Virus record (IMG/VR): IMGVR_UViG_2778261009_000003
Span: 1-14,454 of that record
DNA length: 14,454 nucleotides
Source of the DNA: a virus
Taxonomy: Duplodnaviria; Heunggongvirae; Uroviricota; Caudoviricetes
Reading direction: 5' to 3' (one strand)
The notes beneath the pieces were generated by a model. That model was given only the letters and a program-made list of their open reading frames with translations, was not told where the DNA came from and did not search any database. The translations under genes were made by a program, and so were the position numbers. Numbering within the stretch: position 1 is the stretch's first letter; every line of letters starts with the position of its first letter. Shown here one piece after another: positions 1-14,454 of this stretch.

Positions 1-128
1 GCTGGAAAGGCTGGGCCATACTCCTCCGGCAGAAGCAGAAAAAGCTTATTATGCTTCCATCGGAAACGATGATCTGGCAGCCTGAGTTCACAGATAAAAC
101 ACTCTCCAGGAAACCCGGGGCGGTTCAG
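1..128. repeat. Left copy of a perfect 128-bp inverted repeat (partner 14327..14454)
   Basis: Checked base by base: the reverse complement of 1..128 equals 14327..14454. The match stops at position 129 (g, where the partner strand would give t). This copy lies inside the HAD reading frame. Confidence 0.95.
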
Positions 129-548
129 GTGAAGTCGCTACGTGAAGCGGTTCATGAAGTGAATGGAATATGGAAATTTGCCCTTACAGATACTGATACA
201 GCTAAATTACAAAATTTCAATCAAACCGTTGAAGAAGAGCTTGGGCTTACATGCGAATGGTCGTGGCATGACCAAGTAGATATAGCACAAACCGGAAACA
301 GCAAAGGTAAACGATTGGCACAATGGGTTGAGTCTCAGGGTTTATCAATGAACCAAGTTATTGCTTTTGGGGATAACCATAACGATCTTAGTATGCTAAA
401 AAATGCTGGTCTTGGCGTGGCTATGGGTAATGCCGTAGATGAAGTGAAAGAATGTGCTGATTTAGTGATAGGAACTAACATGGAATCAGGAATTGCTGAG
501 ATAGTTAACAGATATTTTGATCATGTACCTGCACAAAATGTTTTATGA
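3..548 (+). CDS. Cof-type HAD-IIB family hydrolase (sugar-phosphatase-like), 5'-partial, runs off the window start
   Basis: Frame 3 is open from position 3 with no stop; stop codon at 546-548. The C-terminal motif VIAFGDNHNDLSMLKNAGLGVAMGNA matches the HAD motif III/IV region of Cof/YbiV-like phosphatases as I remember them. About 41% GC in a hand-counted 100-nt sample. Confidence 0.75.
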   Translation, partial: WKGWAILLRQKQKKLIMLPSETMIWQPEFTDKTLSRKPGAVQVKSLREAVHEVNGIWKFALTDTDTAKLQNFNQTVEEELGLTCEWSWHDQVDIAQTGNSKGKRLAQWVESQGLSMNQVIAFGDNHNDLSMLKNAGLGVAMGNAVDEVKECADLVIGTNMESGIAEIVNRYFDHVPAQNVL

Positions 549-575
549 TTTTGAAACTACTAGGAGAGTTGACCA

Positions 576-785
576 ATGACAGATGAACAATTTGAAAATA
601 ACTATCCAAGAGATCAATATAGCTACGTACGTAAGAGCTTTAGAACCAAAGGGACAATGGGACAAACAGAAATTGAAGTCTTTGATATTGTCACAAAAGG
701 TACTGGTGAAGTTGTGCTCACAGCGACACGAACAGAACATACTAATCTGCGTGGTTTAAACACTACAGTTAACTGGGATTGGTAA
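576..785 (+). CDS. Small hypothetical protein (69 aa), probably host-encoded
   Basis: ATG at 576 preceded by AGGAG (562-566) with 9-nt spacing; followed by a hairpin at 800-827. No family recognised. Confidence 0.55.
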   Translation: MTDEQFENNYPRDQYSYVRKSFRTKGTMGQTEIEVFDIVTKGTGEVVLTATRTEHTNLRGLNTTVNWDW

Positions 786-793
786 TGATTAGC

Positions 794-830
794 AAAAATA
801 AAGCCCGCTCAATTTACTGCGGGCTTTGTA
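794..830. terminator. Rho-independent terminator-like hairpin, probably bidirectional
   Basis: Stem aaagcccgc (800-808) pairs with gcgggcttt (819-827) around a 10-nt loop; A-run upstream on plus gives a U-tract on the minus strand. Sits where composition shifts from host-like to AT-rich. Confidence 0.5.
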
Positions 831-859
831 GATCATAAGATTATCTGAGAACTCTTGAA

Positions 860-889
860 TTCGACAATCTATTCATCGGTGATTAAAAT
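860..889 (+). promoter_or_regulatory. Candidate sigma70-like promoter (TTCGAC, 18-nt spacer, TAAAAT) that would give a near-leaderless transcript for the 897 ORF
   Basis: Hexamers read by eye at 860-865 and 884-889. No Shine-Dalgarno precedes ATG 897. Weak evidence. Confidence 0.2.
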
Positions 890-896
890 CTCTTAT

Positions 897-1601
897 ATGA
901 AAAAACATCATTTTAAAAAATTAGTTAAACAAATTAAATTTTCTCATATAGCTTGTTTAGCAGTCGGAATACTGATCCCGATATATATAGATGTCTTAGG
1001 TTTTCATGAATTTAATAGTTCTACTGTATCTGCCATTATGGATACAGTATTGGCAAGCATTGCTACTTATACACTATATAAAGTCAAAAATTGGTACAAT
1101 GAAAAGACACATACGAAAGGATTCGAACAAGCAAATAATTTTATTGTTCATTTATCCGATGCTAAATTAAAGTCAGAAAAAGTATTTGAGCACATAATGA
1201 ATATGTATTGCTATTTAGGCACCAAAAATTTGGGAAAAACAGACCCACATTATGAAAAACTCAATAATGAAATTGAGACATTATGGTTAGATTTTAAAAC
1301 TCATTTATCTGTGCTTTCTTCACAAAAAGACATATTAAAAGTTTGGGAAATCGAAATAAGACCAGATCAACGAGATGGCATAACCCAGTACATTAGTACT
1401 TTATATAAATTTTCAGAGCTTAGCCAAATGATGATCTTTTCATATAAAGATGTTAATGGCATGGCTCGTAAAAAATCATATGAGTTCAATCAAATTAGCT
1501 TCAATCAATGCTATGCCTTAACACAGATTCTATCTACATCTTGGATGAACACCTGGAGGTCATTATTTGTAATTACTAAGTCAACCACCCACCATGATTA
1601 A
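897..1601 (+). CDS. Hypothetical membrane protein with two predicted N-terminal TM helices and a roughly 170-aa soluble domain
   Basis: Long open frame in very AT-rich DNA (about 26% GC in sample 901-1000), where chance ORFs of this length are unlikely. The ORF track starts at TTG 855; ATG 897 (MKKHHFKKL) is preferred. Hydrophobic segments IACLAVGILIPIYIDVLGF and VSAIMDTVLASIATYTLY. Start uncertain. Confidence 0.5.
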   Translation: MKKHHFKKLVKQIKFSHIACLAVGILIPIYIDVLGFHEFNSSTVSAIMDTVLASIATYTLYKVKNWYNEKTHTKGFEQANNFIVHLSDAKLKSEKVFEHIMNMYCYLGTKNLGKTDPHYEKLNNEIETLWLDFKTHLSVLSSQKDILKVWEIEIRPDQRDGITQYISTLYKFSELSQMMIFSYKDVNGMARKKSYEFNQISFNQCYALTQILSTSWMNTWRSLFVITKSTTHHD

Positions 1602-1871
1602 AAGTATCTGTAGTAGCTCACCTAGTGGAATTTGTATTAATACAATACCAAACGCATCAAGAACAGGAACAATTATCCAATTATATAAAATGATTAGGGA
1701 AAGTACAAAACCAAGGAAGTTTCTCCAGTGAAAGGTGTTTTGCTCAATTTCAATTTTATTTGTCTCAATCTGTCCATCAGTGTTAGTTTTATGTTCCTCT
1801 TTTTCAATTATTTTTGTCTTTGTAAAAAGACTCATTATCGTACTAATTAATACGGAGATTGCATTTATCAT
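1581..1871 (-). CDS. Small membrane protein (96 aa) with a hydrophilic middle and two C-terminal TM helices
   Basis: ATG at 1871 with AAGGA 8 nt upstream; begins 12 nt after the stop of the upstream minus-strand ORF. Its 3' end overlaps the 3' end of the convergent 897..1601 ORF by 21 nt. Confidence 0.5.
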   Translation of the reverse strand: MINAISVLISTIMSLFTKTKIIEKEEHKTNTDGQIETNKIEIEQNTFHWRNFLGFVLSLIILYNWIIVPVLDAFGIVLIQIPLGELLQILLIMVGG

Positions 1872-1882
1872 ATTTCATTTCC

Positions 1883-2203
1883 TTATTGTAACTGGCATAC
1901 GACTGACCAAACGCGATGACCTTTGTAGACTTGATTAAAACATGACAGTACTGCTACTGTCTTATTATCACCAAGACATACGGTATCGAGTACATCACCA
2001 TCATTAACATTCGGAATATTGTTTAGATTGAAACTGAATACAATCAAATTCCCTTTACTCTTATCTACCTTCTTTTTAATTAACTTGCTACCCGAAAACA
2101 CTTTGTCATATGGCAAAGTAACACTTACAGGTTTGACGTTTTGAAATAGGAATTCATCCAGTACGGTATGGTCATAACAGGGATATTGATCAAGTATATT
2201 CAT
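1883..2203 (-). CDS. Hypothetical protein (106 aa if started at the internal Met; track ORF starts at 2215)
   Basis: Internal ATG at 2201-2203 is preceded by GGAG at about 6-nt spacing and overlaps the stop of the upstream ORF (TAATG). No family recognised. Confidence 0.45.
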   Translation of the reverse strand: MNILDQYPCYDHTVLDEFLFQNVKPVSVTLPYDKVFSGSKLIKKKVDKSKGNLIVFSFNLNNIPNVNDGDVLDTVCLGDNKTVAVLSCFNQVYKGHRVWSVVCQLQ

Positions 2204-2796
2204 TATTTTCTCCATTTATATTCGAATGTACCACTCATAGTTTGAAGTTGTCGTAATACCATTTTTTCGGTTGTGTCATAAAAATCAAATATTGGTTTTC
2301 TTCCAACACTTCCATAATAACCAATAACACGTTCCTTACTCGTTTTCGTCTTCTTGGTAGTGTCGATTAGATATGTCTTTCCAGACGTCTTACTCTTCAC
2401 TTTTTTATATTTATCGTTCTTACGCTTTGATTTAAGTTGACTTATATTACCCTGTTTTGTCTTCTTGGCGTTTTGGTATGGGATCGCTTTATATTCCTTA
2501 TTCCCTACATAATCAGGGTCAATAATATGCTTTAAGTATCTCGCCTGATTTCCCAGTACTATAATCTGGTTTACACTCTCAAATTCATTAAGCCGTTTAA
2601 AATTAAAGTACATCGCTCTACCCGTATATGGAATTACACCACCATCTACTTCCTGGTTAATTTTATGCTGTATCTGTTGGGTAACATTACGCATACGATT
2701 ACTTAGTTCTTTTTTGAAGTGTTTACCGATCTTTGGGGAATTTTTATTAACAAATTTTTTCATATCATCTGGTGAATGACCATTCTTCCATTTCAT
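2203..2796 (-). CDS. Lysine-rich basic protein (197 aa), putative DNA-binding partner with a NUMOD3-like N-terminal motif
   Basis: ATG overlaps the upstream stop as ATGA; GAGAGG RBS 6 nt upstream. N-terminus KNGHSPDDMKKF resembles the NUMOD3 motif of GIY-YIG homing endonucleases (from memory). Lys-rich tract KSKRKNDKYKKVKSKTSGK. Confidence 0.5.
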   Translation of the reverse strand: MKWKNGHSPDDMKKFVNKNSPKIGKHFKKELSNRMRNVTQQIQHKINQEVDGGVIPYTGRAMYFNFKRLNEFESVNQIIVLGNQARYLKHIIDPDYVGNKEYKAIPYQNAKKTKQGNISQLKSKRKNDKYKKVKSKTSGKTYLIDTTKKTKTSKERVIGYYGSVGRKPIFDFYDTTEKMVLRQLQTMSGTFEYKWRK

Positions 2797-3221
2797 GATA
2801 ACCTCTCTAATAATTGTTGCAGTACTTTGAATGTTTCAGAACGATTTTTACCAAGCCGTACTTTACACATCACGGCAAGATTCAAATTATTTGATTGCTG
2901 TCCTAAGAATAGAATCAACGCCGCTTCTACCTGCTCGGCTTCATTCGTCGTACTGAAACACCATAGTATTTGTTTTTCATAGTTCAGACCTGAATCGACC
3001 ATTGCCTGCACTTTCTTTGAGGAAGAATAATAATTCTCCCAGTTGGATTCCTTTGTAGTTGGCTTCAGCTTCTTTACATCCCGAATACCTTTGAAGATTG
3101 ACTTTACACCAAAATAATATGAACCATCGTCAAAAGTGATCATATATACAAAAGCTGCATACCTCCCGTCATTTATATCTTCATAATCCCATGTCTCAGG
3201 ATCATGCATTGTCCATTTCAT
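2793..3221 (-). CDS. GIY-YIG-like nuclease domain protein (about 142 aa from ATG 3221; track ORF starts at TTG 3236)
   Basis: Motif FVYMITFDDGSYYFG fits the GIY-(10 aa)-YIG spacing; Arg 8 residues after, then NEAEQVEAAL and SNNLNLA resemble the I-TevI Glu and Asn regions (from memory, not aligned). About 31% GC. Confidence 0.5.
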   Translation of the reverse strand: MKWTMHDPETWDYEDINDGRYAAFVYMITFDDGSYYFGVKSIFKGIRDVKKLKPTTKESNWENYYSSSKKVQAMVDSGLNYEKQILWCFSTTNEAEQVEAALILFLGQQSNNLNLAVMCKVRLGKNRSETFKVLQQLLERLS

Positions 3222-3257
3222 ATAAATACCCCACAAACAATAATTTATGAGGTATTT

Positions 3258-3704
3258 ATGTGTTTAAGAGAAAAATTAAAAGTATATGAAGGTACGAAAG
3301 AATACCAAGCCCATATGGGTTATTATCGCAATGGTAAATTCTGGGTGTATAAATGTAGTGAGAACAAAGATACGATTGGATATGGACATCTACTAAAAGC
3401 CTCTGAATCGTTCTCTAACGGCATTAACGAGGATGAAGCAGATAAACTACTGGATAAAGATATTGGCATTGCCAAACGTGATTTATCTACCTTAAATTTG
3501 AAATTACCACAGGACTGGGAAGACTTCATGGTTATTATGATTTTTCAGTTAGGCTTAGGTGGTACTAAGAAGTTTAAAAAGATGATCATTGCATTACAAA
3601 ACAATAATTATACAGAAGCAATTAAACAGGCAAAGGATAGTTTATGGTATCGTCAGACACCGAATAGACTTGACAAAATGATTAAAGATTTAATTAACAA
3701 ATAA
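3258..3704 (+). CDS. Phage lysozyme / endolysin, GH24 T4-lysozyme-like
   Basis: TIGYGHLL and SLWYRQTPNR closely parallel T4 lysozyme TIGIGHLL and SRWYNQTPNR. GAGG RBS 6 nt before ATG 3258 (track ORF starts at 3204, rejected). No signal peptide or SAR-like N-terminus. Confidence 0.8.
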   Translation: MCLREKLKVYEGTKEYQAHMGYYRNGKFWVYKCSENKDTIGYGHLLKASESFSNGINEDEADKLLDKDIGIAKRDLSTLNLKLPQDWEDFMVIMIFQLGLGGTKKFKKMIIALQNNNYTEAIKQAKDSLWYRQTPNRLDKMIKDLINK

Positions 3705-3735
3705 AAAAGGGGCATTAAGCCCCTTTTTATTTTTC
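3703..3735. terminator. Bidirectional rho-independent terminator between convergent genes
   Basis: A-run, GGGGC stem, ATTAA loop, GCCCC stem, T-run; lies between the lysozyme stop (3702-3704) and the 88-aa gene stop (3727-3729). Confidence 0.65.
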
Positions 3736-3993
3736 AAGTATCACAAGAATACGTGCAATATCTACTTCAAGTCGTCTGATTGATTCATCAACTGACTTAA
3801 GAGTAATCTTCATAGCTTCATGCTCACTTCGTAATGTAGTAACAGATTGTTCTACAAGTGCAAGTCGTGTTTCTACTGAGGCAAGACGTGCTTCTATTTC
3901 TGCATCATCAGTCTTATTATCACGAATGATAGTCCAGATTAATGCTACAAAAGTTAGAAAAACTGCAATCCCTGCAATTACCAATTCTACCAT
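3727..3993 (-). CDS. Small membrane-anchored coiled-coil protein (88 aa), possible lysis-associated (holin- or spanin-like) protein
   Basis: One N-terminal TM segment (LVIAGIAVFLTFVALIWTII) then a heptad-like charged helix. AAGGGA RBS upstream. No embedded lipoprotein ORF found in other frames, so not a classic Rz/Rz1 pair. Function is a guess. Confidence 0.45.
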   Translation of the reverse strand: MVELVIAGIAVFLTFVALIWTIIRDNKTDDAEIEARLASVETRLALVEQSVTTLRSEHEAMKITLKSVDESIRRLEVDIARILVILEK

Positions 3994-4055
3994 TCCCTTT
4001 AGTTCCCTTTTTAATTATTATAGGTAGTTTTTAGGCTACCCATATTTATTTAGTT

Positions 4056-7000
4056 TTAGTTACTAACGGGGTTCTCACCACTACGGAATAAGAAGAGATC
4101 AAGTCTGTCACCTGGTAGATTATTGTTTCCCTGATGTTCGCCTATATCCAGTCCACATGAACCACTACGGCCATCTGAAGCCATTACATATAGATAATTC
4201 ATCTTACCCCTACCTACAGCAGGAATTTGAATATTATCAATTTTATATGAAACTGGCGTATCTTCACCACCGGAACCTGCATCATAACCCCATAATAGAC
4301 GGTTTGCTATTCCATCCCCACCAACAAACACTTGAAAATAGTTCCACTTCCAGCATGTAAAATAAAAACTCATATTACTATTCAGAGTCCTTGCAAAGTC
4401 CTCCCCTTTAATACGCAATCCTACATATAGTCGACCTGGTTCTGGTCTATAGTTTTCTGGGAATTCTACCCCAGGAGGTGCCCATACGTTCCCCTGTCGA
4501 TTAACTCCAGTACTTTGAGGTCTGCACTGATCACCAACAATACGTGATGCATTAAGAGTACCAAGAATTGTACAGTCCTGGTTAATAGTAACATTATTCA
4601 TGGTTCCACTGGTTGCCTGAATATTACCCCGTACTGATACGTCCTGGAAGCTTGCCTTACCATTCTTATTGATCATCCAGCCTGTACTACCATTCCAGTT
4701 TGTAGATTGAATTTGCTGGGATATTTTTGCTGAGTCGATAACCCCGTTAACTATGTGTCCATTAAGGATTGAAGCATTGGCTATGCGAGCTGAGTCGATT
4801 GCTGCTATCTGAATTTTCGCACGCGAAACGGCAAGGTCATTTATCTGCCCTGTGTTTATACTCGCGTCTCCAATGACCGCACTATTGATATAAGTCTTAC
4901 CATTCTGAACTACAAACGGATATACCTTATCAGTCTGTTTAGCACTGTCAGTAGAAATAATACTGAAACGATCTGCCATTACCGTAAATGCTGAGTTTTT
5001 CCCGTCATTAGCAAGTGATACACCTGACACGTTGCCGTTATTCGTCACCTGAACCTGCCAGCGTGAACCAAGGTCATCAACAATATGTTTCTCAATAATG
5101 CCTGTGGCAACATCTGAATTCAGTAATTCATCTACAACATCATCATTTAGCTTTGAGTACGGAACTTTAGTATTCTGGTTAAAACCAATAGTTGGCGACC
5201 ATACTAATTCATCCTGTCCCATTACATCATATGCTGCAAGACGTCCGAACCACGATCCATCCTCTATCCCAAATGAAGCTGAGAAGCGGTTAGAAGAACT
5301 GAAATAGTGAACATCCGAACTAAAACCCTCATCCTTAGCACACTGGAACACTACACCAGAATAGTCTGGTACGTTTGATTCATCCCATTCTAAGAACACA
5401 TTATCATAGCCATTACGCAAACGTACACCAAGTAATTGGGGGTGCTGTGGGTTACTTACTTCAATCTGTACTTCTTCTGAATAAATTCCAGTACCGTGAC
5501 CGTGGGCAATAATACCAATTACACGATATCTGTTAAGTCCATCAGATTGATTCATTGCAAAGGTATATATCCAGTTAAAGTCCGTTGTAAAGTACGACTT
5601 AATATATGTACGATAACGGTCATACACACGAATTTCATAATATTTGAAAAAATCAGAGAATCGTTTTCCATTTACTGGCAAAGTACTTTGTTCATCCCAT
5701 CTGAATATAAAATCTTGTGAATAAGTCTGGTTCAATCCCATATTATCGTTAGTCATATCAAGATTAGTAATCTTTGGTAGGGCAAAAATCACCTGTGGAG
5801 TTTGATTATAAATTGCAACTAACTCAGATGAATAACCGAGAGTGTTATACGCCTCAATACCAAAATCATATTTAACACCGTGGATTAGATTCAGTATCTG
5901 AAACTCTGTGGTGTACTGTCCTACGTTACCAATCGAGATCCATGTATTCGAATCACTGCGTTTATATCTAATCTTATAACCCCGTACGCTTGAATCCTGG
6001 CTTAAATCCCATGTCATAAGCACGGCATTACCGTTAACGGTTGCACCAAGTTTCTGCACCTGCAAGTTTGATGGAGGTTCTACGTATGTCGCGTTTGGTA
6101 GATTTGTGATCCCGTCCTGTGGGAATCGTCCATGGTCTTTCCCCTGATATATGCCGTCCGCATAGGCTATAGCGGTAATCTGTACGACACCAGTCTTATC
6201 TACGGTCATCGGTACAGTACGTTGTATTACACGGAACTTATTATTAACAAATCCGGCTTCTTTGAAACTGAGTGTAAAAACATCGTAGACTGTGAGATCG
6301 GTAACGTATGTGTTAAAAGTTATACTATTAAGAACATACTTAGATTTTAATAGTTCGGTATTAGCCATTTTAGCAAGTTGTTTTTTGTCCTGAATCCATT
6401 TTAGATTAAGGTCTTTTTTAATGATTAAACCATCCCGTACCACTGTTTCATTTGTAAGCGTATCACTTGGATAACGAATAATATCTTCTGAGTAATCACC
6501 GCCTGGGTTTGTATAGGTCACATCGAATACGTTCGCATAATCCGTATTAGAACCAGTTGTGATATTCACAGTACCGAGAATGTTTTTTTCATCAAAATGA
6601 TATAGTGGGACATCGGCAGTATCTACGGTGAGATACATAATACCATTCGATTCATATATTACACCACCGAATGTAGACAAGATGCTTTCAAGGTTTTCTT
6701 TATATGACTTATCATAGGCAATAGCACCATTTGAATATAGTTCATTATTCTTACAGTACATTGCACAATTACGAAATGATGCAATATCAATATCATTAGG
6801 ATCAGTGTTGAAACCAAATTCATTATTTGTGATAAAGTCATATAACTGACTCGGTGGATTACTGGAGGGTTTACGAATGTTATCAGTAAGGTCATAAATT
6901 AGACGTCCTTTCATCTCCAATGAAAGTGCATAGTTTTGATTCACTAAAATACCATCAGTCAGACTACCATTAGTCTTACGGATAACCGAACAAACCTGTA

Positions 7001-7613
7001 CTAATCCATCACCACGCATTTCATCAGTCCAGCGAGATCCGCCATATTGCCGGGCAAGTGTCATAGAACCACCATAAGACGGCTTTCCAAAACGAATTTC
7101 GAGCTGGAGGAAGTTACGATACTTCTCACGCATAAGGGATGTAGAAACAATACCCTCACTGGTTATTTCGGCATCATCTAGTAAGATTGGACTGTTATCA
7201 AAGTATACCTGTTTAATTACGGCACCAGATTGTGCACCTGGAGCACGTCCGATCTCCCCGATACTAATAGCATGCACTGTGCATAGTTGGTTACTTTGTC
7301 CCTTATAGACGTTCTGCCATACGACAATGGAACCTACCTTAACAAATGATTCTTCGGTCAGGCTTCTATTAGTACCGCCATATACAATCGGTATCCCAGT
7401 ACTGGGTGAAGTACTTCGAGAGTTAACCGTTCCAGTACTGGGATAGTTTACCCCCTGATCTCCAACACGCATCATCTGGGAGGATGCAACATAGGATAAT
7501 GCTGCTACACCAACACCAATAGCGATAGATGCTGCAAGACCCACTGCTGCGTAAGCTGCGGCGGCGGCTGATGCACCTGCTATTACTGCTGTTAATACGG
7601 CTGCTACTGCCAT
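4056..7613 (-). CDS. Host specificity protein J-like central tail fibre / tail tip protein (1185 aa) with an N-terminal gpI-like hydrophobic extension
   Basis: C-terminal SGTMNNVTINQDCTILGTLNASRIVGD parallels lambda J SGTLSNVTIAENCTINGTLRAEKIVGD (from memory). FN3-like segment around KIRYKRSDSNTWISIG. GGAGGG RBS 7 nt upstream. About 46% GC. Confidence 0.85.
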   Translation of the reverse strand: MAVAAVLTAVIAGASAAAAAYAAVGLAASIAIGVGVAALSYVASSQMMRVGDQGVNYPSTGTVNSRSTSPSTGIPIVYGGTNRSLTEESFVKVGSIVVWQNVYKGQSNQLCTVHAISIGEIGRAPGAQSGAVIKQVYFDNSPILLDDAEITSEGIVSTSLMREKYRNFLQLEIRFGKPSYGGSMTLARQYGGSRWTDEMRGDGLVQVCSVIRKTNGSLTDGILVNQNYALSLEMKGRLIYDLTDNIRKPSSNPPSQLYDFITNNEFGFNTDPNDIDIASFRNCAMYCKNNELYSNGAIAYDKSYKENLESILSTFGGVIYESNGIMYLTVDTADVPLYHFDEKNILGTVNITTGSNTDYANVFDVTYTNPGGDYSEDIIRYPSDTLTNETVVRDGLIIKKDLNLKWIQDKKQLAKMANTELLKSKYVLNSITFNTYVTDLTVYDVFTLSFKEAGFVNNKFRVIQRTVPMTVDKTGVVQITAIAYADGIYQGKDHGRFPQDGITNLPNATYVEPPSNLQVQKLGATVNGNAVLMTWDLSQDSSVRGYKIRYKRSDSNTWISIGNVGQYTTEFQILNLIHGVKYDFGIEAYNTLGYSSELVAIYNQTPQVIFALPKITNLDMTNDNMGLNQTYSQDFIFRWDEQSTLPVNGKRFSDFFKYYEIRVYDRYRTYIKSYFTTDFNWIYTFAMNQSDGLNRYRVIGIIAHGHGTGIYSEEVQIEVSNPQHPQLLGVRLRNGYDNVFLEWDESNVPDYSGVVFQCAKDEGFSSDVHYFSSSNRFSASFGIEDGSWFGRLAAYDVMGQDELVWSPTIGFNQNTKVPYSKLNDDVVDELLNSDVATGIIEKHIVDDLGSRWQVQVTNNGNVSGVSLANDGKNSAFTVMADRFSIISTDSAKQTDKVYPFVVQNGKTYINSAVIGDASINTGQINDLAVSRAKIQIAAIDSARIANASILNGHIVNGVIDSAKISQQIQSTNWNGSTGWMINKNGKASFQDVSVRGNIQATSGTMNNVTINQDCTILGTLNASRIVGDQCRPQSTGVNRQGNVWAPPGVEFPENYRPEPGRLYVGLRIKGEDFARTLNSNMSFYFTCWKWNYFQVFVGGDGIANRLLWGYDAGSGGEDTPVSYKIDNIQIPAVGRGKMNYLYVMASDGRSGSCGLDIGEHQGNNNLPGDRLDLFLFRSGENPVSN

Positions 7614-7614
7614 G

Positions 7615-8004
7615 TTATTTCCCTCCGAATCTATAAATTTTATAATTGTTTTCTATTGGTTCATATTTCATTACTGTATAGACACCATCGATTAAAATGA
7701 TTACTTTACCTCTCCAGTACACAGTAGATTGGGAGCCAGTAATTAGGATATCCCCATCAAATGGTTCTACTTGTTTTATACCCAGATCATTACATAGGGC
7801 ATTTAGTGATTTATATGAACAATGTTCTTTTGCGTACTTTCGACCGCCAGTAGGTGACGTATATTTCTGATAGATTTCGTCCCTGTAATTTGTACCAAGA
7901 TGCATATCAATAACAGTCAGAGACATGATATGACAATCATTTTCACCGTATACAATTGGCTGACCGATTAGAGTACTAAGATATTCTGTAATAAATCCAT
8001 TCAT
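7615..8004 (-). CDS. Minor tail protein (129 aa), K-like position, partial NlpC/P60-like signature
   Basis: GQPIVYGENDC and GDILI resemble the NlpC/P60 G-x-P-Y-x-W-G-x-x-D-C-S-G and GDLVFF motifs, but no His follows. Start overlaps the upstream stop (TAATG). Confidence 0.45.
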   Translation of the reverse strand: MNGFITEYLSTLIGQPIVYGENDCHIMSLTVIDMHLGTNYRDEIYQKYTSPTGGRKYAKEHCSYKSLNALCNDLGIKQVEPFDGDILITGSQSTVYWRGKVIILIDGVYTVMKYEPIENNYKIYRFGGK

Positions 8005-8648
8005 TATTTTTTACTCGCTTGCCAAAACTGCTCTGAACTATTTAGTATTCCGATTAGATCAAAGAACTTATCACCCTTATGGGTTGATTGGTGAATTGAT
8101 GTACTTGATAGTAGACGTTGTGTCTGGTCTAATTTCTTCCATATGGAATTGAGATTAACAGTGGTTTCATTCTGTGTGTTAGTTCCATCTACAGAAAAAT
8201 CACTGCTAAAATAATCTATATATCCACTAAAAATACGATAACGGTAAAGAAGTGCACCTGTTGCAGGGTTAACGATCCCCATCCAGATATTAACTTTGGC
8301 ATCTTTCCACAATCCTCTTAAAGCAAGGGAAAGATAATCCTGGCTTACGTTACTAATCTTAAACGTAGTACCGGTATTATTGATCTGATTCTTTTCTACA
8401 TAGTTCGCAAAGGATGAATCAATTAGATCTGGAATTGGTTTATATACAATGCCATTGATATTCTGTTCTACTACTGCATCAGTAAGGTATAGATTACTTC
8501 CTGTAGGAGGTAATAGATCAATCAGTTTTACCATGATTCCACACTGGTATAATTCCCTTTCTGTAAGAACTGACTTATTATCACCCCGCATTAGATTCCA
8601 GTACTTTACTAATTCTGGGTTACTTAGTACATTGTTTGGAATTGCCAT
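8004..8648 (-). CDS. Minor tail protein (214 aa), L-like position
   Basis: Translationally coupled within the tail operon; AAGGGG RBS upstream. Assigned by position only; lacks the Cys cluster of lambda L. Confidence 0.45.
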   Translation of the reverse strand: MAIPNNVLSNPELVKYWNLMRGDNKSVLTERELYQCGIMVKLIDLLPPTGSNLYLTDAVVEQNINGIVYKPIPDLIDSSFANYVEKNQINNTGTTFKISNVSQDYLSLALRGLWKDAKVNIWMGIVNPATGALLYRYRIFSGYIDYFSSDFSVDGTNTQNETTVNLNSIWKKLDQTQRLLSSTSIHQSTHKGDKFFDLIGILNSSEQFWQASKK

Positions 8649-8649
8649 A

Positions 8650-9204
8650 TTATCCCCTTATATTCTCTGTTGCCGTAATTGTCATTTCAATAATATTCGT
8701 ACTTGGTAAGTCATATGTAGAGTTAGCAGGTGTAAGAATAAAAGAACCCATTAGATTATCGTATTTTACTGTTTCCCCTATCTGGATATTTCGGATCAGT
8801 CCTGGGTAGATATTCAGAGTCGTTCCACTACGGGCAATAACACGATAGAGTTTTTTGTGTCCTGAGAATTGAATTAAATCACCTGGGGAAAGGTTATTAG
8901 TATTGGTCTGAATAGATGTAGCCCCGGCTGTACGGGCTGCTGTTACCTGTACACCTGTCGCCTGATTACCTGAATAATCACCCCACCAACCAAGAGACAT
9001 ATCAAAAGGTCTGCCATTGGAATAGAGTGCAAGAAAGTTTGTTAAATCGGTTCTGTATTTTTTACTTGTTGTAACCTTAAAACTTATGCTGAAGTACTGT
9101 GTTCCGACAATACGGGTAATTACCTCACCAGACCATGTTTTGTTTTGGTATTGGGGGATATTATCAGAAAGTACAAAATCACTTATTAGAGAGTTATTAA
9201 ACAT
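8650..9204 (-). CDS. Minor tail protein (184 aa), M-like / distal tail position directly after the tape measure
   Basis: Position and AAGGA RBS. No diagnostic motif. Confidence 0.45.
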   Translation of the reverse strand: MFNNSLISDFVLSDNIPQYQNKTWSGEVITRIVGTQYFSISFKVTTSKKYRTDLTNFLALYSNGRPFDMSLGWWGDYSGNQATGVQVTAARTAGATSIQTNTNNLSPGDLIQFSGHKKLYRVIARSGTTLNIYPGLIRNIQIGETVKYDNLMGSFILTPANSTYDLPSTNIIEMTITATENIRG

Positions 9205-9219
9205 ATATTTTCCTTATAA

Positions 9220-9237
9220 AGCCCACATGAATGTGGG
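9220..9237 (-). other. Intergenic hairpin between tape-measure stop and next gene start
   Basis: gcccaca / tgaa / tgtgggc, 7-bp perfect stem; followed on the minus strand by a short U-run and then the RBS. Confidence 0.3.
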
Positions 9238-9251
9238 CATACTGTATTTAC

Positions 9252-11513
9252 TTAGACGTTCCTCTGTTGGCTTTTACGTACTGCCTGGGTGATAGTATCG
9301 GCGTGTTTATCACACATACTCTGGAATTTTGAATCTGTGAGTTCTCCGGCACCCTGAATAATTAAAGGGGCATCAATTTTAATATCACCACCTTTATCAC
9401 TCCCCTTATTATTCAAGTACTGTGTTAAGTCCTGGTTCAGAGATTTACCTACAACACGTTCACCTTTTTCAAGATTATATGTACCAGTCTTCGGTAGTGA
9501 GTCCCAACCATCATGTGCCTGACCTTCAATCTTTGTACCCTTAATCGTACTGACAATATTGGCACCTTCGGCTGCAACCTTAATACCCGCAGCGATGCCT
9601 GTAGGCCAGCCAAGCTTCATAGCCTCAGAAATACCCTGCTGAATATTGATAATAGACTGGGCAACTGCGATCCCTTTGCTCATTGCAAATGCAGCTTTTG
9701 CCATAGCATTACTTTCACCAAATACACCTGCAAGAGTAGTACCGAGATCCTGAGCACCCGTTGCATACATAGAAAGTGTCTTTTGCTGGGCATCAATATT
9801 AGCCTGACTCATTTTGTCTGTAGTAGATTGTTGAATTGCTACCATGCGATCTTGGTAATCCTGATAACTTAATAACTTCTGTTCATACAGACTTTGATTC
9901 AGTGCTAATTCGGCCTGTCCTTCTGTTGCTAATGTATCGAGCGTGTTCTGATCGGCACTCATATTTAATGGATCTTGATTAAGTCCCATACGTTCGTTTT
10001 GACCTGCCAGTACTGAATTAAGGTCTTTTCCTGACATAGAACCACCAATTGCCGAAATATTCTGGGCAAGTTTAAGTGGATCACTTTCAGTGAGCATTGA
10101 ATTAACCATTTCTTTATACAGGCGTTTACGTGAATCAGTCTGCTTTCTTAATAGTTCAGTCTTTTCAGCTTCAGTTTTACCAAGAGTATCTGCACTTATT
10201 TTAATGCGTTGTTCTATTTCATCCTGGGTCTTATTAAATTGTTGTAGCTGTAGGGCAGCACCATTACCTGCAATACCATTCATAGTCTGTTCCAGTACTT
10301 TGGCAGCCTGGATACGATCCTTTGCGGCCTTATCACTGGCTTTTTTCGCTTCTTCCCCTGCTTTACCATCATCGAAGTTAGAACGCTCTTTTGTCGTTCC
10401 TGTATATGCCTTTGTAGTTGGTTTATAGTCTTCCTGTGAATATTCACGGGCAAAGGCAGCAAGACCACCAATACCTGGTCCAAGTGGTGAAAAAACTGCA
10501 TCGGCTGCTGTCTGTACGTGTTTACGTCCTTTTGCTATTTGCTCGGGTGTAAACTCGGGTAATTCAAGGCCAATCTTTGATCCTAAATTACGGATCATGT
10601 CATAGAATTTAACGACCTGATCGTATAACGACTGTATGATCGTGTTTTTTGAATCCCAGTTAAAGAATGAATTAATAAACTCAACTGCTTTTGTTTTGAG
10701 GTTGTCAAACCATTGATATATTTCCTTACAGGCTTTTACGAGTCCATTAAAAATATCAATGAGGGGTGTAACAATTTCAAATGCAAGAGTTTTCAGTCCG
10801 TTACCAAGACCTGAAGTATTCTGACTTAACAGATCAAATGTTTTTGCCTGTTCATTAGTCATTGCTACGTTCTGGGCTGCAAGAGAGTTATTAAATTCAA
10901 TCTCACTATTAAAAGAGTTGAATGTAGGTATTAGTTTTGCAGCATCACCACCGAGAGCATTAATCATGTTTGTAATTTCGGCAAGATTTGCACCATTCTT
11001 TTTCATCTCAAAAAAGACTTTTGACAATGCCTGTAAACCACCATCAGCCTGTTTTAATGTTGGTATTAGGCTCTTTACATCTACGCCGAATGTTTTCAAG
11101 TCACCGCCAACGCCAGAACCGTCCGCAGACGCAATACCAAGTTGATCCATCACTGCTTCGTTAATCGAACCAACTTCTTCCATAGATAATCCTATGGTTT
11201 TGAATGCCCCTGACCACTGCTGGAGTTGCTCGGCACTTAGTCCGGTTGTGCGTGTCAATGCGTTGATGTCGTTTGCAAGTCCAATTGTATATGTGGTCAG
11301 TGCTGTAATAGCTGTAATTGCCATTGTTGCCGCATTACCAACACCACCAAGACCAGTTGCCATTGAACTTAGGCCACCACTAATACCACCAAATACACTA
11401 CCAGCACGATCACCAAAGTCGGCAAGTCCATTGCCAGCACTTTTTAAAGATTTTTGTAACCCAGATTCATCACCTGTGATTTCAAAAATCATCTGTTGTT
11501 TATTCCCTGCCAT
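9252..11513 (-). CDS. Tail tape measure protein (753 aa)
   Basis: Large Ala/Gly/Gln-rich ORF with low-complexity helical stretches, immediately downstream of the G/GT chaperone pair; its ATG lies 1 nt after the T-frame stop. Confidence 0.85.
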   Translation of the reverse strand: MAGNKQQMIFEITGDESGLQKSLKSAGNGLADFGDRAGSVFGGISGGLSSMATGLGGVGNAATMAITAITALTTYTIGLANDINALTRTTGLSAEQLQQWSGAFKTIGLSMEEVGSINEAVMDQLGIASADGSGVGGDLKTFGVDVKSLIPTLKQADGGLQALSKVFFEMKKNGANLAEITNMINALGGDAAKLIPTFNSFNSEIEFNNSLAAQNVAMTNEQAKTFDLLSQNTSGLGNGLKTLAFEIVTPLIDIFNGLVKACKEIYQWFDNLKTKAVEFINSFFNWDSKNTIIQSLYDQVVKFYDMIRNLGSKIGLELPEFTPEQIAKGRKHVQTAADAVFSPLGPGIGGLAAFAREYSQEDYKPTTKAYTGTTKERSNFDDGKAGEEAKKASDKAAKDRIQAAKVLEQTMNGIAGNGAALQLQQFNKTQDEIEQRIKISADTLGKTEAEKTELLRKQTDSRKRLYKEMVNSMLTESDPLKLAQNISAIGGSMSGKDLNSVLAGQNERMGLNQDPLNMSADQNTLDTLATEGQAELALNQSLYEQKLLSYQDYQDRMVAIQQSTTDKMSQANIDAQQKTLSMYATGAQDLGTTLAGVFGESNAMAKAAFAMSKGIAVAQSIINIQQGISEAMKLGWPTGIAAGIKVAAEGANIVSTIKGTKIEGQAHDGWDSLPKTGTYNLEKGERVVGKSLNQDLTQYLNNKGSDKGGDIKIDAPLIIQGAGELTDSKFQSMCDKHADTITQAVRKSQQRNV

Positions 11514-11514
11514 A

Positions 11515-11835
11515 TTATTTTCTTCCCATCCAGTTTAACATGTTTGCTCTCTGTTCTTCGGCGATCCGTTTCTCTCTCTCTTCGGCTTGTTCTTTAATGG
11601 TCTTATTGTTGATGATATTAAGAGAGTCCAATTCTGTGATACTGAATTTCTTTAAGTCTTCCTTCTTAATATTCCCAGTACTGAGCCATATAGCCTGGAG
11701 TATTTCGGTATGTCTTACCTGTTCAATTCGGGAAGAATTTGGTTCTACAAAAGTGTCATATACAAATAGATAGATAAAAAGCGAAAAGGGCATGGTGCAG
11801 AGATCTTCCACACCACACCCTTTTGTCATCAGCAT
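11515..11835 (-). CDS. Tail assembly chaperone T segment, probably expressed as a G-T fusion via -1 frameshift
   Basis: This ORF is in the -1 frame relative to G. Its frame is open upstream to a TGA three codons before the G stop, so it overlaps the slippery site. Confidence 0.6.
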   Translation of the reverse strand: MLMTKGCGVEDLCTMPFSLFIYLFVYDTFVEPNSSRIEQVRHTEILQAIWLSTGNIKKEDLKKFSITELDSLNIINNKTIKEQAEEREKRIAEEQRANMLNWMGRK

Positions 11836-11867
11836 TTTTAGAGAAAGTTTAAGAAACGGATCGCCTC

Positions 11868-12158
11868 TTACTTTTTTTCAATTTCTTCAATATTCATAGC
11901 TTCGGTAAAAATACGCGTGATTTCGGTATTAAGTTTGATTTGATAAACCATGTCAATTTCGCTTTCTACCTGTTCTGGTGATTTAAAAAGTTGTTTGCCA
12001 TCGACATCAACTACACAGTAATGAATTGTAGTGTACGGGTCACTACATTCACTATACTTAGAAATAGCTGGAAGACGAATATAAACAGTAAACCCCGGAG
12101 CAAGTTCAAAGGCATGTTTTTTGACACCAATTGCTGTCATTAGATTAGATAGATCCAT
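11868..12158 (-). CDS. Tail assembly chaperone G-like (96 aa)
   Basis: Small acidic protein between tube and tape measure; ends ...EIEKK* with slippery heptamer A-AAA-AAG directly before the stop. Confidence 0.65.
   Translation of the reverse strand: MDLSNLMTAIGVKKHAFELAPGFTVYIRLPAISKYSECSDPYTTIHYCVVDVDGKQLFKSPEQVESEIDMVYQIKLNTEITRIFTEAMNIEEIEKK
11871..11877 (-). other. Programmed -1 ribosomal frameshift slippery heptamer A_AAA_AAG (G/GT)
   Basis: Minus-strand aaaaaag (plus-strand ctttttt at 11871-11877) in the zero-frame register gaA AAA AAG TAA. Same heptamer as the E. coli dnaX shift site. Confidence 0.6.
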
Positions 12159-12190
12159 GTGTATTTTTTCCTTATTATGATTATTTTATA

Positions 12191-12667
12191 TTATGGTTTT
12201 GCTGCGATTTCACCAACTGCTACAGGTTGTCCCGTAATTGTCATGACGAATTCACGTGTCGCGACAGAATCAAAATCCCCACCGACAACATCAGAACTGA
12301 TATAGCCATTAACTACAGAGTAATAACCCGCACCATCGGTATCAGCGATGTTTTCGTAATAGGTTACTTTTACCTGCATAAGCGTCTGTTTTTGAGCTGC
12401 GGTAACTAACATCTCCTGTCCTACTGCCCCTGGTTTCCAGTTCACAGATAGGGTTAGATCGGGTACAGAACGAGAACCTAATAGCTTCTGTGCGTACTGC
12501 TTACCAAATGTATTTACTGAAATGATTGTACTCTCGGCACCTGCTGCTGATGGGAAAGCTGCAACTTCTTCAATTACTGTATAAGTGGTTGCCTGACCAC
12601 CACCTGCTGGTGCTTCTGCAATTTCTACTACAACGTTATTCGCTGCGAAAATTCGATTAAAAGCCAT
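12191..12667 (-). CDS. Major tail (tube) protein (158 aa)
   Basis: Size and position directly upstream of G/GT and tape measure; AAGGA RBS 8 nt upstream. No motif-level confirmation. Confidence 0.65.
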   Translation of the reverse strand: MAFNRIFAANNVVVEIAEAPAGGGQATTYTVIEEVAAFPSAAGAESTIISVNTFGKQYAQKLLGSRSVPDLTLSVNWKPGAVGQEMLVTAAQKQTLMQVKVTYYENIADTDGAGYYSVVNGYISSDVVGGDFDSVATREFVMTITGQPVAVGEIAAKP

Positions 12668-12688
12668 TTTAATTTCCTTATTTAATTA

Positions 12689-12707
12689 GGGTAACGTCCT
12701 GTTACCC
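12689..12707 (-). other. Intergenic hairpin upstream of the tube gene
   Basis: gggtaac / gtcct / gttaccc, 7-bp perfect stem, between the 533-aa ORF stop (12718-12720) and tube start (12667). Confidence 0.3.
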
Positions 12708-12717
12708 GTTTCCTTTT

Positions 12718-14319
12718 TTATTTATGAAGATTGTAGTACTGCACATATAGCCCCAATCCGCGTAAAAGTTCACCCGAATAGAAACTAAAGAACATACTAT
12801 TGTTTTCGGCAGTTGTTTCATTACCTGTTCTGATTGACGCAGGCCATGTACCATTCATTACATGATTTGGTGAAATAACTGCATAGTTAAGTTGTATTTC
12901 ATCAAATAGTAATTGAATTAGCTCATGGTCTGGATATCCGGCGATAGCCATCATGCATGCCCCTGCTAACCATAGACCTGACATATGAGGGGTAAAGCCA
13001 TCATATTCTACAGAACCATTATCCCTAAAATAGGTAGGAGCTTTACCGACATTATTTTTCATGAACCATTTTAGATAGTTCATCCAGTTCTGACAGAAAG
13101 ATATTAGTTTAGGAGGTATTACAGTACTGTCTTGTCGTGACCATAATTCATGTACTGCATCACACCCACCAAAGAAAGCCCTTGGTTCGTATCCACTCCA
13201 TGCTTCGGCGTACCAGTGCTGCATTATGAATTGATCTGGTTTACCATCAGGAGCATATGCTAAAGCGTCCTGTCTGTTCCATACGAAAGCCTGTGCACAT
13301 GGTCCTGGTAAAGATGGTTTAAATTTATTTTTAAACCATGCCTGAGAATCATATAGAAAATTGATACTGTTATTTAAGCGAGTATGATCTATTTCTGTTC
13401 CTTTAAAGCACCAGATCGCCGGTAGTTGATAACCAGGATACGGTAGACCACGCCAGCCAGAATATAACTGGGCATAGGGATCGGTAATGTTAGAGAACGG
13501 AATTAAACCGGGAGTATACGCAAGACTATCTAACATATAATCTTTAATAGTACAGTCACCTAATCGTGCTGTGTATCCATTACCAGTTGTGTCGTTAAAC
13601 GTAAGCAGTACTGTGACCGAATAATCACCTGTCCCAGCATCTGTATACATCGCAGGCAAATCATTAATACAATACCAGTCAATCTTTCCATTCACACCAT
13701 TTACTGGATCTGTATCAAGTAGCAGTGTGAAAGATTCACGGTTCGTTAGTACTGGGCTTGCTGGAATTGGATCTGGTTGAATCCATTCTCCTGGGTTATC
13801 TGGATCTTCAATTTCGGGGTGATCTGGTTGATAACCGTTTAGTTTGAAGTCAGCAATAGTAAAAGTCTTTGTAACCCATTCACCATTTGTTGCAGGGAGC
13901 ATAGCCCACCAACGCCATTTATTATCATCACTTATACGAAAGTTAAAATCATCATCATATGAACGATAGGTAAAAGACTGAATATTGGCAGTCTCTGGTG
14001 TGAATATCCAAAACCCCACCACCTGTCCCCCGTCACCATCCATTGTTGTAGACACGACGTTATCGTAATACTTCCCAAGTACTCCACTCTGATATTCAAA
14101 GTTTGTTACCGTGTTATCTCCATAATCGGCAATCATACGTAGATCGGCAGTCATATAATTAGAGCCATCTGGTTTCATCACACGTGTGAAACGATTCATA
14201 GGAATGTCCATTGTAGTAATAGATCCATCTGGATTAGTCATTGGTAAGCCACACCGATAATCAATTGCACCCTCTTCTGTCTTTGTTTTATTCACTGTGA
14301 CTTCAGCAGATACTGACAT
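12718..14319 (-). CDS. Large hypothetical protein (533 aa), Trp/Tyr/Asn/Asp-rich, enzyme-like; possibly 5'-truncated at the inverted-repeat junction
   Basis: 1.6-kb open frame. The only start is ATG 14319, 7 nt inside the junction, with no Shine-Dalgarno; the frame is open upstream into the repeat until a stop. Not recognisable as capsid, portal, terminase or sheath. Confidence 0.55.
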   Translation of the reverse strand: MSVSAEVTVNKTKTEEGAIDYRCGLPMTNPDGSITTMDIPMNRFTRVMKPDGSNYMTADLRMIADYGDNTVTNFEYQSGVLGKYYDNVVSTTMDGDGGQVVGFWIFTPETANIQSFTYRSYDDDFNFRISDDNKWRWWAMLPATNGEWVTKTFTIADFKLNGYQPDHPEIEDPDNPGEWIQPDPIPASPVLTNRESFTLLLDTDPVNGVNGKIDWYCINDLPAMYTDAGTGDYSVTVLLTFNDTTGNGYTARLGDCTIKDYMLDSLAYTPGLIPFSNITDPYAQLYSGWRGLPYPGYQLPAIWCFKGTEIDHTRLNNSINFLYDSQAWFKNKFKPSLPGPCAQAFVWNRQDALAYAPDGKPDQFIMQHWYAEAWSGYEPRAFFGGCDAVHELWSRQDSTVIPPKLISFCQNWMNYLKWFMKNNVGKAPTYFRDNGSVEYDGFTPHMSGLWLAGACMMAIAGYPDHELIQLLFDEIQLNYAVISPNHVMNGTWPASIRTGNETTAENNSMFFSFYSGELLRGLGLYVQYYNLHK

Positions 14320-14326
14320 TGCAGTA

Positions 14327-14454
14327 CTGAACCGCCCCGGGTTTCCTGGAGAGTGTTTTATCTGTGAACTCAGGCTGCCAGATCATCGTTTCCGATGGAA
14401 GCATAATAAGCTTTTTCTGCTTCTGCCGGAGGAGTATGGCCCAGCCTTTCCAGC
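14327..14454. repeat. Right copy of the perfect 128-bp inverted repeat (partner 1..128)
   Basis: Exact reverse complement of 1..128; an inverted duplicate of HAD-gene coding sequence fused to the 5' side of the 533-aa ORF. Confidence 0.95.

Follow-up and report, generated by a model that had tools for sequence, protein, structure and literature searches.

The window examined here is a stretch of 14,454 nt from a tailed-virus record (IMG/VR IMGVR_UViG_2778261009_000003). It makes up the entire contig NMAY01000054.1 (14,454 bp) of the Escherichia coli draft assembly GCA_002536795.1, and therefore no source contig exists beyond it. Between two ends of an insertion sequence (IS) it carries the genes of a non-contractile phage tail, a lysis cluster and accessory genes (Table 1). 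A preliminary description, made from the letters of the sequence, had favored a tail-only element resembling the F-type tailocins, with a prophage fragment whose head genes lie beyond the right-hand junction as the alternative. The alternative proved correct. The window is very probably the IS-interrupted tail and lysis segment of an uncharacterized but conventional temperate siphovirus-type prophage.

The tail genes were assigned mainly by profile searches. The J-like tip protein also matched the lambda gpJ chains 8xcj and 8iyk in a Protein Data Bank (PDB) search. In the chaperone pair, T is reached through a -1 shift at the slippery heptamer A_AAA_AAG (approximately 11871-11877), and the -1 frame is open to 11515. 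The G/GT arrangement is canonical, and its place, flanked by the tube gene on one side and the tape measure gene on the other, fits as well. Searches of the window with the Pfam and PHROG profiles revealed no gene for a capsid, a portal, a terminase or an integrase, in agreement with the preliminary description, which had also recognized the T4-type endolysin (PF00959, E=1e-09, at 3258-3704). The tail set that it called complete does include the tube, G/GT, the tape measure, three minor tail proteins and the J-like tip. It is nevertheless incomplete, with one gene for a 952-aa protein cut at the right edge and the genes for a 560-aa protein and connectors lying outside the window.

Table 1. 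Features of the 14,454-nt window and the evidence for each
Feature	Coordinates	Strand	Evidence
Right IS end (right inverted repeat, IRR, and last orfB codons) of an IS629/IS1203-type IS3-family element; contig edge	1..127	+	Inverted repeat and identity
3' part (last base of codon 141 to stop) of YbhA-like haloacid dehalogenase (HAD) pyridoxal phosphatase gene, IS-cut	128..548	+	PF08282 E=5e-31
Hypothetical protein, 69 aa	576..785	+	Annotated in FDN-9; no significant family match
Accessory protein, 234 aa, N-terminal membrane segment, opposite late genes	897..1601	+	Open reading frame (ORF) and hydropathy
Holin candidate, 96 aa, two C-terminal hydrophobic segments	1581..1871	-	Weak PF11351 GTA_holin_3TM E=1.3e-3; phrog_2024 E=3e-07; hydropathy
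Hypothetical protein, 106 aa	1883..2203	-	No family match
Lysine-rich hypothetical protein, 197 aa	2203..2796	-	No family match
GIY-YIG (SegE-like) nuclease-domain protein, 142 aa	2793..3221	-	PF19835 E=1.2e-16
GH24 (T4-type) endolysin, 148 aa, strand opposite late operon	3258..3704	+	PF00959 E=1e-09; phrog_13211 E=1.3e-37
Bidirectional terminator-like hairpin, 10-bp stem, T-runs on both sides	3704..3728	.	Terminator search
Last tail-operon gene, 88 aa, N-terminal membrane anchor and coiled coil	3727..3993	-	Weak DUF2730
J-like tail tip/central fiber protein, 1,185 aa	4056..7613	-	PF09327 E=3e-24; PF13550; fn3
DUF6950 minor tail protein, 129 aa	7615..8004	-	PF22262 E=4e-08, above curated cut-off
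Minor tail/hub-like protein, 214 aa	8004..8648	-	phrog_2048 E=3e-26; weak PF09931
Distal tail protein, 184 aa	8650..9204	-	phrog_1302 E=5e-17; weak PF21430
Tape measure protein, 753 aa	9252..11513	-	phrog_13674 E=6e-56, full length
Tail assembly chaperone pair G (11868-12158, 96 aa) and GT	11515..12158	-	Three-frame translation and slippery-heptamer search
Tail tube protein, 158 aa	12191..12667	-	phrog_158 E=9e-17; PF16461 below cut-off
C-terminal 533-536 codons of 952-aa tail-fiber-like gene, IS629-cut	12718..14327	-	phrog_2871 E=5.5e-174
Right end of second IS629-type copy, inverted; contig edge	14328..14454	-	IS identity and inverted repeat

Positions 3258 and 14319, between which the preliminary description had placed the tail and lysis genes, are both real ORF boundaries. 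The rightmost ORF (12718-14319, 533 aa) matched the phrog_2871 profile over positions 536-1041 only, and we therefore interpreted it as a truncated gene. Its start corresponds to residue 420 of the full 952-aa protein, of which it represents the C-terminal 56%.

The two edges of the window, positions 1-128 and 14327-14454, form a perfect inverted repeat. Each is the right end of an IS629/IS1203 element, one inverted with respect to the other, with 127 nt of IS-derived sequence on each side and 97-99.6% identity to many copies in E. coli and Shiga toxin (Stx) phages. The right-hand junction, described earlier as anomalous, is nothing more than an IS629-type end. The terminal identity and the TG...CA ends are those of IS629/IS1203, and a full copy, delimited in locus L004 at 1318-2627, is 1,310 bp long. 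The contig stops at these points since the assembler was unable to bridge a multi-copy IS, and the 127-nt stretch would be of a size typical of an assembler k-mer overlap. Next to the IS ends, the 4-bp target duplications are GGTG at 128-131, in the phosphatase gene, and GTAC at 14324-14327, in the fiber gene. The support for a 4-bp length is indirect, in that, of the truncated outer products that were predicted (below), only those with a 4-bp duplication exist publicly.

A DNA search of complete genomes found the unique 14.2 kb of the window (126-14329) at 100% identity in the chromosomes of E. coli FDN-9 and FDN-24. The element in FDN-9 was approximately 34.4 kb long including an IS of its own, or approximately 33 kb without it, with a guanine-plus-cytosine (GC) content of approximately 38-40%. 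Beyond the window its operon continued with the 952-aa phrog_2871 protein (locus L001, 29593-32451), a 560-aa tail protein composed of a tube-like N-domain and a fiber-like C-domain, and small connectors including a gpW-like one. The head and packaging genes were contiguous with these. The capsid gene encodes a fusion of prohead protease and HK97-fold capsid (PF04586 and PF05065), the portal is of the lambda family (PF05136, E=1e-58), the terminase large subunit (TerL) is of the gpA type (PF05876 and PF20454), and the small subunit (TerS) matched phrog_57. The terminase, portal and HK97-fold capsid with its protease that mark a temperate prophage are thus all present in FDN-9, outside the window. 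The profile searches matched no sheath protein, either in the window or elsewhere in the FDN-9 element. To find no head gene in 14 kb of a prophage of approximately 33 kb is unsurprising in itself.

On the far side of the head module lay an early region of approximately 6.5 kb and then a 604-aa large serine recombinase (PF00239, PF07508 and PF13408) that abutted a 3' fragment of host ybhA. The only match in the early region was one HNH endonuclease. Its 17 ORFs (L002 2700-8700), which include those for proteins of 304, 183, 236, 198, 133 and 158 aa, gave no Pfam, PHROG or PADLOC match to a repressor, a Cro-like protein, an excisionase or a replication protein, where profile searches alone can miss divergent genes.

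The FDN-9 element interrupts host ybhA, which is located between pgl and modC, at approximately codon 71, with a TTG core at both junctions (L001 16204-17423; L002 10625-11236). The 5' and 3' fragments of ybhA flank it, giving the attachment (att) junctions of a temperate prophage. Among the loci with the exact tube protein, pgl and the ybhA 5' fragment formed the left flank in the eight places shown. In the close relatives, the element is integrated into ybhA by the large serine recombinase. The complete order, as read from these copies, is TerS, TerL, portal, protease/capsid fusion, connectors, 560-aa protein, 952-aa protein, tube and the following tail genes to the J-like tip, lysis cluster, and the phosphatase next to the left attachment site (attL).

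The full phosphatase in FDN-9 is 280 aa long and shares 62% amino acid identity with host YbhA, and the GC content of its gene is 40%, versus 50-51% for host ybhA. In FDN-9 the gene lies 147 bp inside attL, which puts attL approximately 0.6 kb beyond the left edge of the window. The host-like DNA that the preliminary description saw from about 830 leftward was therefore not host DNA: positions 128-548 belong to the phage-borne YbhA-like gene (40% GC), and attL lies further left. The whole window is inside the prophage. The presence of a full-length YbhA homologue in an element that integrates inside ybhA, and its absence from the N61 copy at another site, suggest that the phage may replace the ybhA gene that its integration disrupts. 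A literature search on ybhA as a prophage attachment site returned nothing relevant; its one match concerned the lambda site between ybhC and ybhA. The related copy in E. coli N61 was integrated elsewhere, near yggR, and was without the phosphatase gene.

If IS629 had inserted into the two genes at the window edges, the outer half of each would read into the left end of the IS (left inverted repeat, IRL), and the product would depend on the length of the target duplication. The fiber-gene fusions predicted for duplications of 1-5 bp were sought among approximately 15 billion proteins. One of the five was found. It was the 4-bp version, a protein of 433 aa ending ...GGVDNTSTEPPRESWRLNFLRKR (P0150), which is WP_190319087.1 of E. 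coli and occurs on one 10,290-bp contig. The phosphatase fusions predicted from the FDN-9 allele were not found in the protein collection, which was explained by an allele difference, S34G. An N-terminal phosphatase fragment of 142 aa (P0157), on one 332,330-bp contig, differed from the prediction solely by this common S34G allele. It ends ...RPVFRQV, exactly where a 4-bp duplication puts the IS TGA in frame.

Both outer halves thus exist, each with the same length of duplication. Since the two duplications differ in sequence and the outer halves are intact, we interpreted them as the products of two independent simple IS629 insertions. Between the insertion point in the fiber gene and the TerS start codon, FDN-9 has approximately 9.9 kb after removal of its own 1,336-bp IS, so the 10.29-kb contig has just enough room for an entire head and packaging module. 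The events in the source strain would then have been two independent IS629 insertions, one in the phage phosphatase gene and one in the 952-aa fiber gene. Since many copies of IS629 exist, an assembly from short reads would have broken at both of these, leaving a 14.45-kb contig with only tail and lysis genes. Its headless look would thus be an effect of the contig boundaries.

The element was rare among complete genomes, being present in three of 5,426 from E. coli (FDN-9, FDN-24 and N61). The N61 copy was 97% identical to the window from 1584 onward. The exact tube protein was found in 179 blocks of the protein collection. Terminase, portal and capsid genes were observed in all five E. coli draft or metagenome loci whose sequence upstream of the tube extended for the full 10 kb. 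A sixth such locus, with 7 kb upstream, begins inside the capsid gene. Contigs that start in the fiber or 560-aa genes are plain assembly breaks.

Capsid and portal genes also preceded the tail genes in every more distant relative with enough flanking sequence. There were 17 of these (eight prophages of other Enterobacterales genera and nine of 11 IMG/VR contigs), or 19 with N61 and FDN-9/24 counted in. Relatives without head genes numbered none among the 27 loci long enough to judge. The 11 IMG/VR contigs are 11-36 kb long, six of them 31-36 kb, and the eight prophages came from Pseudescherichia, Escherichia sp., Rouxiella, Leclercia, Yersinia and Mangrovibacter. The shared synteny was TerL, portal, capsid, 560-aa protein, in some cases the 952-aa protein, tube, tape measure, J, endolysin and GIY-YIG, at 36-45% GC. 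Enterobacterales hosts have approximately 50-55% GC; the value measured here was that of E. coli ybhA, given above.

In N61 and the IMG/VR contig L024, the tail module was 95-99% identical to that of the window, whereas the head and packaging module was only 31-43% identical (N61, L005 35177-41310, versus FDN-9, L001 36217-42458). This combination is a clean module swap, of the kind ordinary in phage mosaicism, as judged from the sequences. In the N61 element, SLATT and SMODS genes, resembling those of the cyclic oligonucleotide-based antiphage signaling system (CBASS), adjoin the terminase.

Several observations weigh against the favored reading, that of a conventional prophage interrupted by IS629. 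The early region of approximately 6.5 kb holds no recognizable repressor, Cro-like or replication gene, and competence as an autonomous phage, judged by gene content, is unproven. The tape measure protein shares at most 34% identity with that of any cultured phage in the phage collection. A DNA search of this collection with the window gave matches to the IS ends alone, and thus no close sequenced phage. TerL of FDN-9 is split into 150 and 470 aa (L001 40072-41986), and an IS3-family element sits in the gene for its 145-aa connector (L001 34409-35637). The fiber gene of N61 has been hit by an IS3 (L005 28636-32752) independently of the IS629 of the source strain, and locus L016 (CP141656.1, 3426-4123) has lost the genes from the J-like one through TerS next to an IS1. 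IS-driven decay is recurrent in this prophage family, and several copies are visibly decaying. Moreover, both contigs with the outer gene halves were assigned to the assembly of the window by uniqueness and length, so that their membership in it, and the presence of the head module on the 10.29-kb contig, are probable rather than observed. Intact copies elsewhere would presumably make infectious virions; in GCA_014809025.1 and GCA_024675835.1, TerL is full-length (629-638 aa).

Four other explanations were weighed. Taken alone, the window would suit an F-type tailocin-like element, that is, a domesticated non-contractile tail cluster with lysis genes that produces headless bactericidal particles. 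It holds tail and lysis genes only; the tube, tape measure, chaperones and tip are there with no sheath; and a bidirectional terminator sets off a separate lysis unit, with an endolysin (PF00959) and a weak holin candidate. We nevertheless find this barely credible. The rightmost gene is a truncated part of a longer gene, and in the copies that match the window at 100% identity the operon runs on into genes for capsid, portal, terminase and a serine integrase. The preliminary description had itself named contiguous capsid, portal and terminase genes as evidence that would tell against it. They were found in FDN-9 and FDN-24, the five loci, N61 and the 17 distant relatives, and presumably exist in the source genome; none of the 27 judgeable relatives was without them. 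An element of fixed position without integrase is also at odds with the 604-aa recombinase, the split ybhA with its att junctions, the sporadic occurrence (three of 5,426) and the second chromosomal site near yggR in N61. Finally, the IS629 copy lies between the tail genes and the earlier part of their operon, where it would have a polar effect on their expression rather than a helpful one.

The IS copies that bound the window on both sides would also fit a true remnant in the source strain, from which an IS629-mediated deletion or rearrangement had removed the head, packaging and integrase genes. IS decay is real in this family, as the deletion next to IS1 in L016 attests. A deletion next to the IS, on the other hand, would have taken with it the target duplication and the outer half of the gene, while the outer halves exist with the exact 4-bp duplication and the 10.29-kb contig has the right size for the head module. 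Such a remnant is very unlikely. The identical, inverted IS ends could likewise be taken for those of an IS629 composite transposon that moved the tail and lysis segment elsewhere. This would predict one shared outer duplication and foreign flanks. Instead, the duplications are separate (GGTG and GTAC), and the outside sequences supply the missing half of each of the two interrupted phage genes. The chance of such a transposon is practically negligible. At the level of the family, all elements of approximately 33 kb might be domesticated or dependent particle producers (gene transfer agent-like or helper-dependent) rather than autonomous phages. The small genome, the lack of recognizable replication and immunity genes in the early region and the weak match to a gene transfer agent holin would agree with this. 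The site-specific integrase with att sites, the sporadic distribution, the phage-typical head swaps against a conserved tail, the full cos-type terminase (TerS and gpA-type TerL) and the IMG/VR contigs of 31-36 kb would not, and unrecognized early genes are common in novel phages. We regard it as extremely unlikely. A related and broader idea, that the family may use a non-canonical mode of maintenance or regulation (host xenogeneic silencing, helper dependence or host-controlled particles), follows from the low GC (36-45%) and the lack of recognizable repressor and replication genes together with the conserved GIY-YIG protein and, in the lineage that integrates in ybhA, the possible replacement of this gene. 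We consider it very unlikely.

The lysis cluster and the genes to its left complete the window. The endolysin was annotated as a glycoside hydrolase in FDN-9. In the subclade of the window its gene runs opposite to the late operon, but in other members of the family it lies on the same strand as that operon. The strong hairpin at 3704-3728 is situated between the convergent endolysin gene and tail operon; in all, seven terminator-like sites were seen in the window versus 1.5 expected. Promoter-like sites were not enriched over shuffled sequences (12 versus 17 expected), and no promoter is claimed. A scan for tRNA genes in the window found none.

The GIY-YIG protein adjoined the endolysin in all 16 of the more distant relatives that reached this region (L025-L042), with 38-56% identity, and was 98.6% identical in N61. 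From this conservation it seems to belong to the core of the lysis cluster, and not to be a homing endonuclease of sporadic occurrence. The 142-aa protein consists of the GIY-YIG domain alone. The 96-aa protein may serve as the holin, as its hydrophobic segments and weak profile matches would allow. The 234-aa protein gave no Pfam match above the curated cut-off, no PADLOC match and no PDB match. Its gene, near attL, is in the position of a moron-type accessory gene; it is absent from N61, which has a different gene there. PDB sequence searches with the 952-aa, 234-aa and 197-aa proteins returned nothing useful.

These results carry a caution: a contig that ends in a multi-copy IS can make part of a prophage look tailocin-like. 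Inspection for IS termini at the contig ends, and comparison of the terminal ORFs with profile coordinates for truncation, are quick checks that resolve such cases. The prophage itself is of modest interest for its integration in ybhA with a possible phage-borne replacement, for a fiber in common with virulent rV5-like myoviruses and for its repeated decay by IS.

Comparison with known systems is in line with these assignments. The elements at the window edges resemble IS629/IS1203 of the IS3 family in every respect considered, namely ends with 97-99.6% identity, a length of 1,310 bp, TG...CA termini, a 4-bp duplication and an orfAB with a programmed frameshift. There was no notable difference, and 127 nt of each copy are in the window.

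The F-type tailocins, such as the Pseudomonas F-pyocins and Listeria monocins, share with the window alone a non-contractile, lambda-like tail set beside lysis genes. Tailocin loci are without capsid, portal, terminase and integrase genes and occupy fixed chromosomal positions. The element, in contrast, has capsid, portal, terminase and integrase genes as well as att junctions, and is sporadic and mobile.

The 952-aa protein (phrog_2871) was approximately 54% identical over its full length to a tail fiber protein of the Vequintavirinae, or rV5-like myoviruses (such as 4MG, PHB05, inny and SPLA5a). Unlike in these virulent myoviruses, the fiber gene here belongs to a small temperate siphovirus-type prophage, lies upstream of the tube gene and, in the source strain, is split by IS629 into ORFs of 433 and 533 aa.

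The closest overall plan is that of the lambda/HK97-like temperate siphoviruses, which have a lambda gpA terminase, a lambda-family portal, an HK97-fold capsid and a gpG/GT-gpH-gpM-gpL-gpK-gpI-gpJ tail module. The element differs from them in the fusion of its protease to the capsid, in a large serine recombinase instead of a tyrosine integrase, in two additional large tail proteins, of 560 and 952 aa, encoded ahead of the tube, in its GC content of 38-40%, in having no recognizable CI/Cro or O/P-type genes and in its tape measure (at most 34% identity). On the other hand, its genes are arranged as in these phages, where terminase and portal are followed by protease/capsid and connectors, then by the tail genes from the tube through G/GT (with its -1 frameshift), the tape measure and the minor tail proteins to the J-like tip, and then by lysis genes. 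It also shares with them the gpA (PF05876 and PF20454), Phage_portal_2 and Phage_Tail_Tip families and the PDB matches to gpJ. The element thus belongs to an ordinary, uncharacterized lineage of serine-integrase, siphovirus-type prophages of Enterobacterales.

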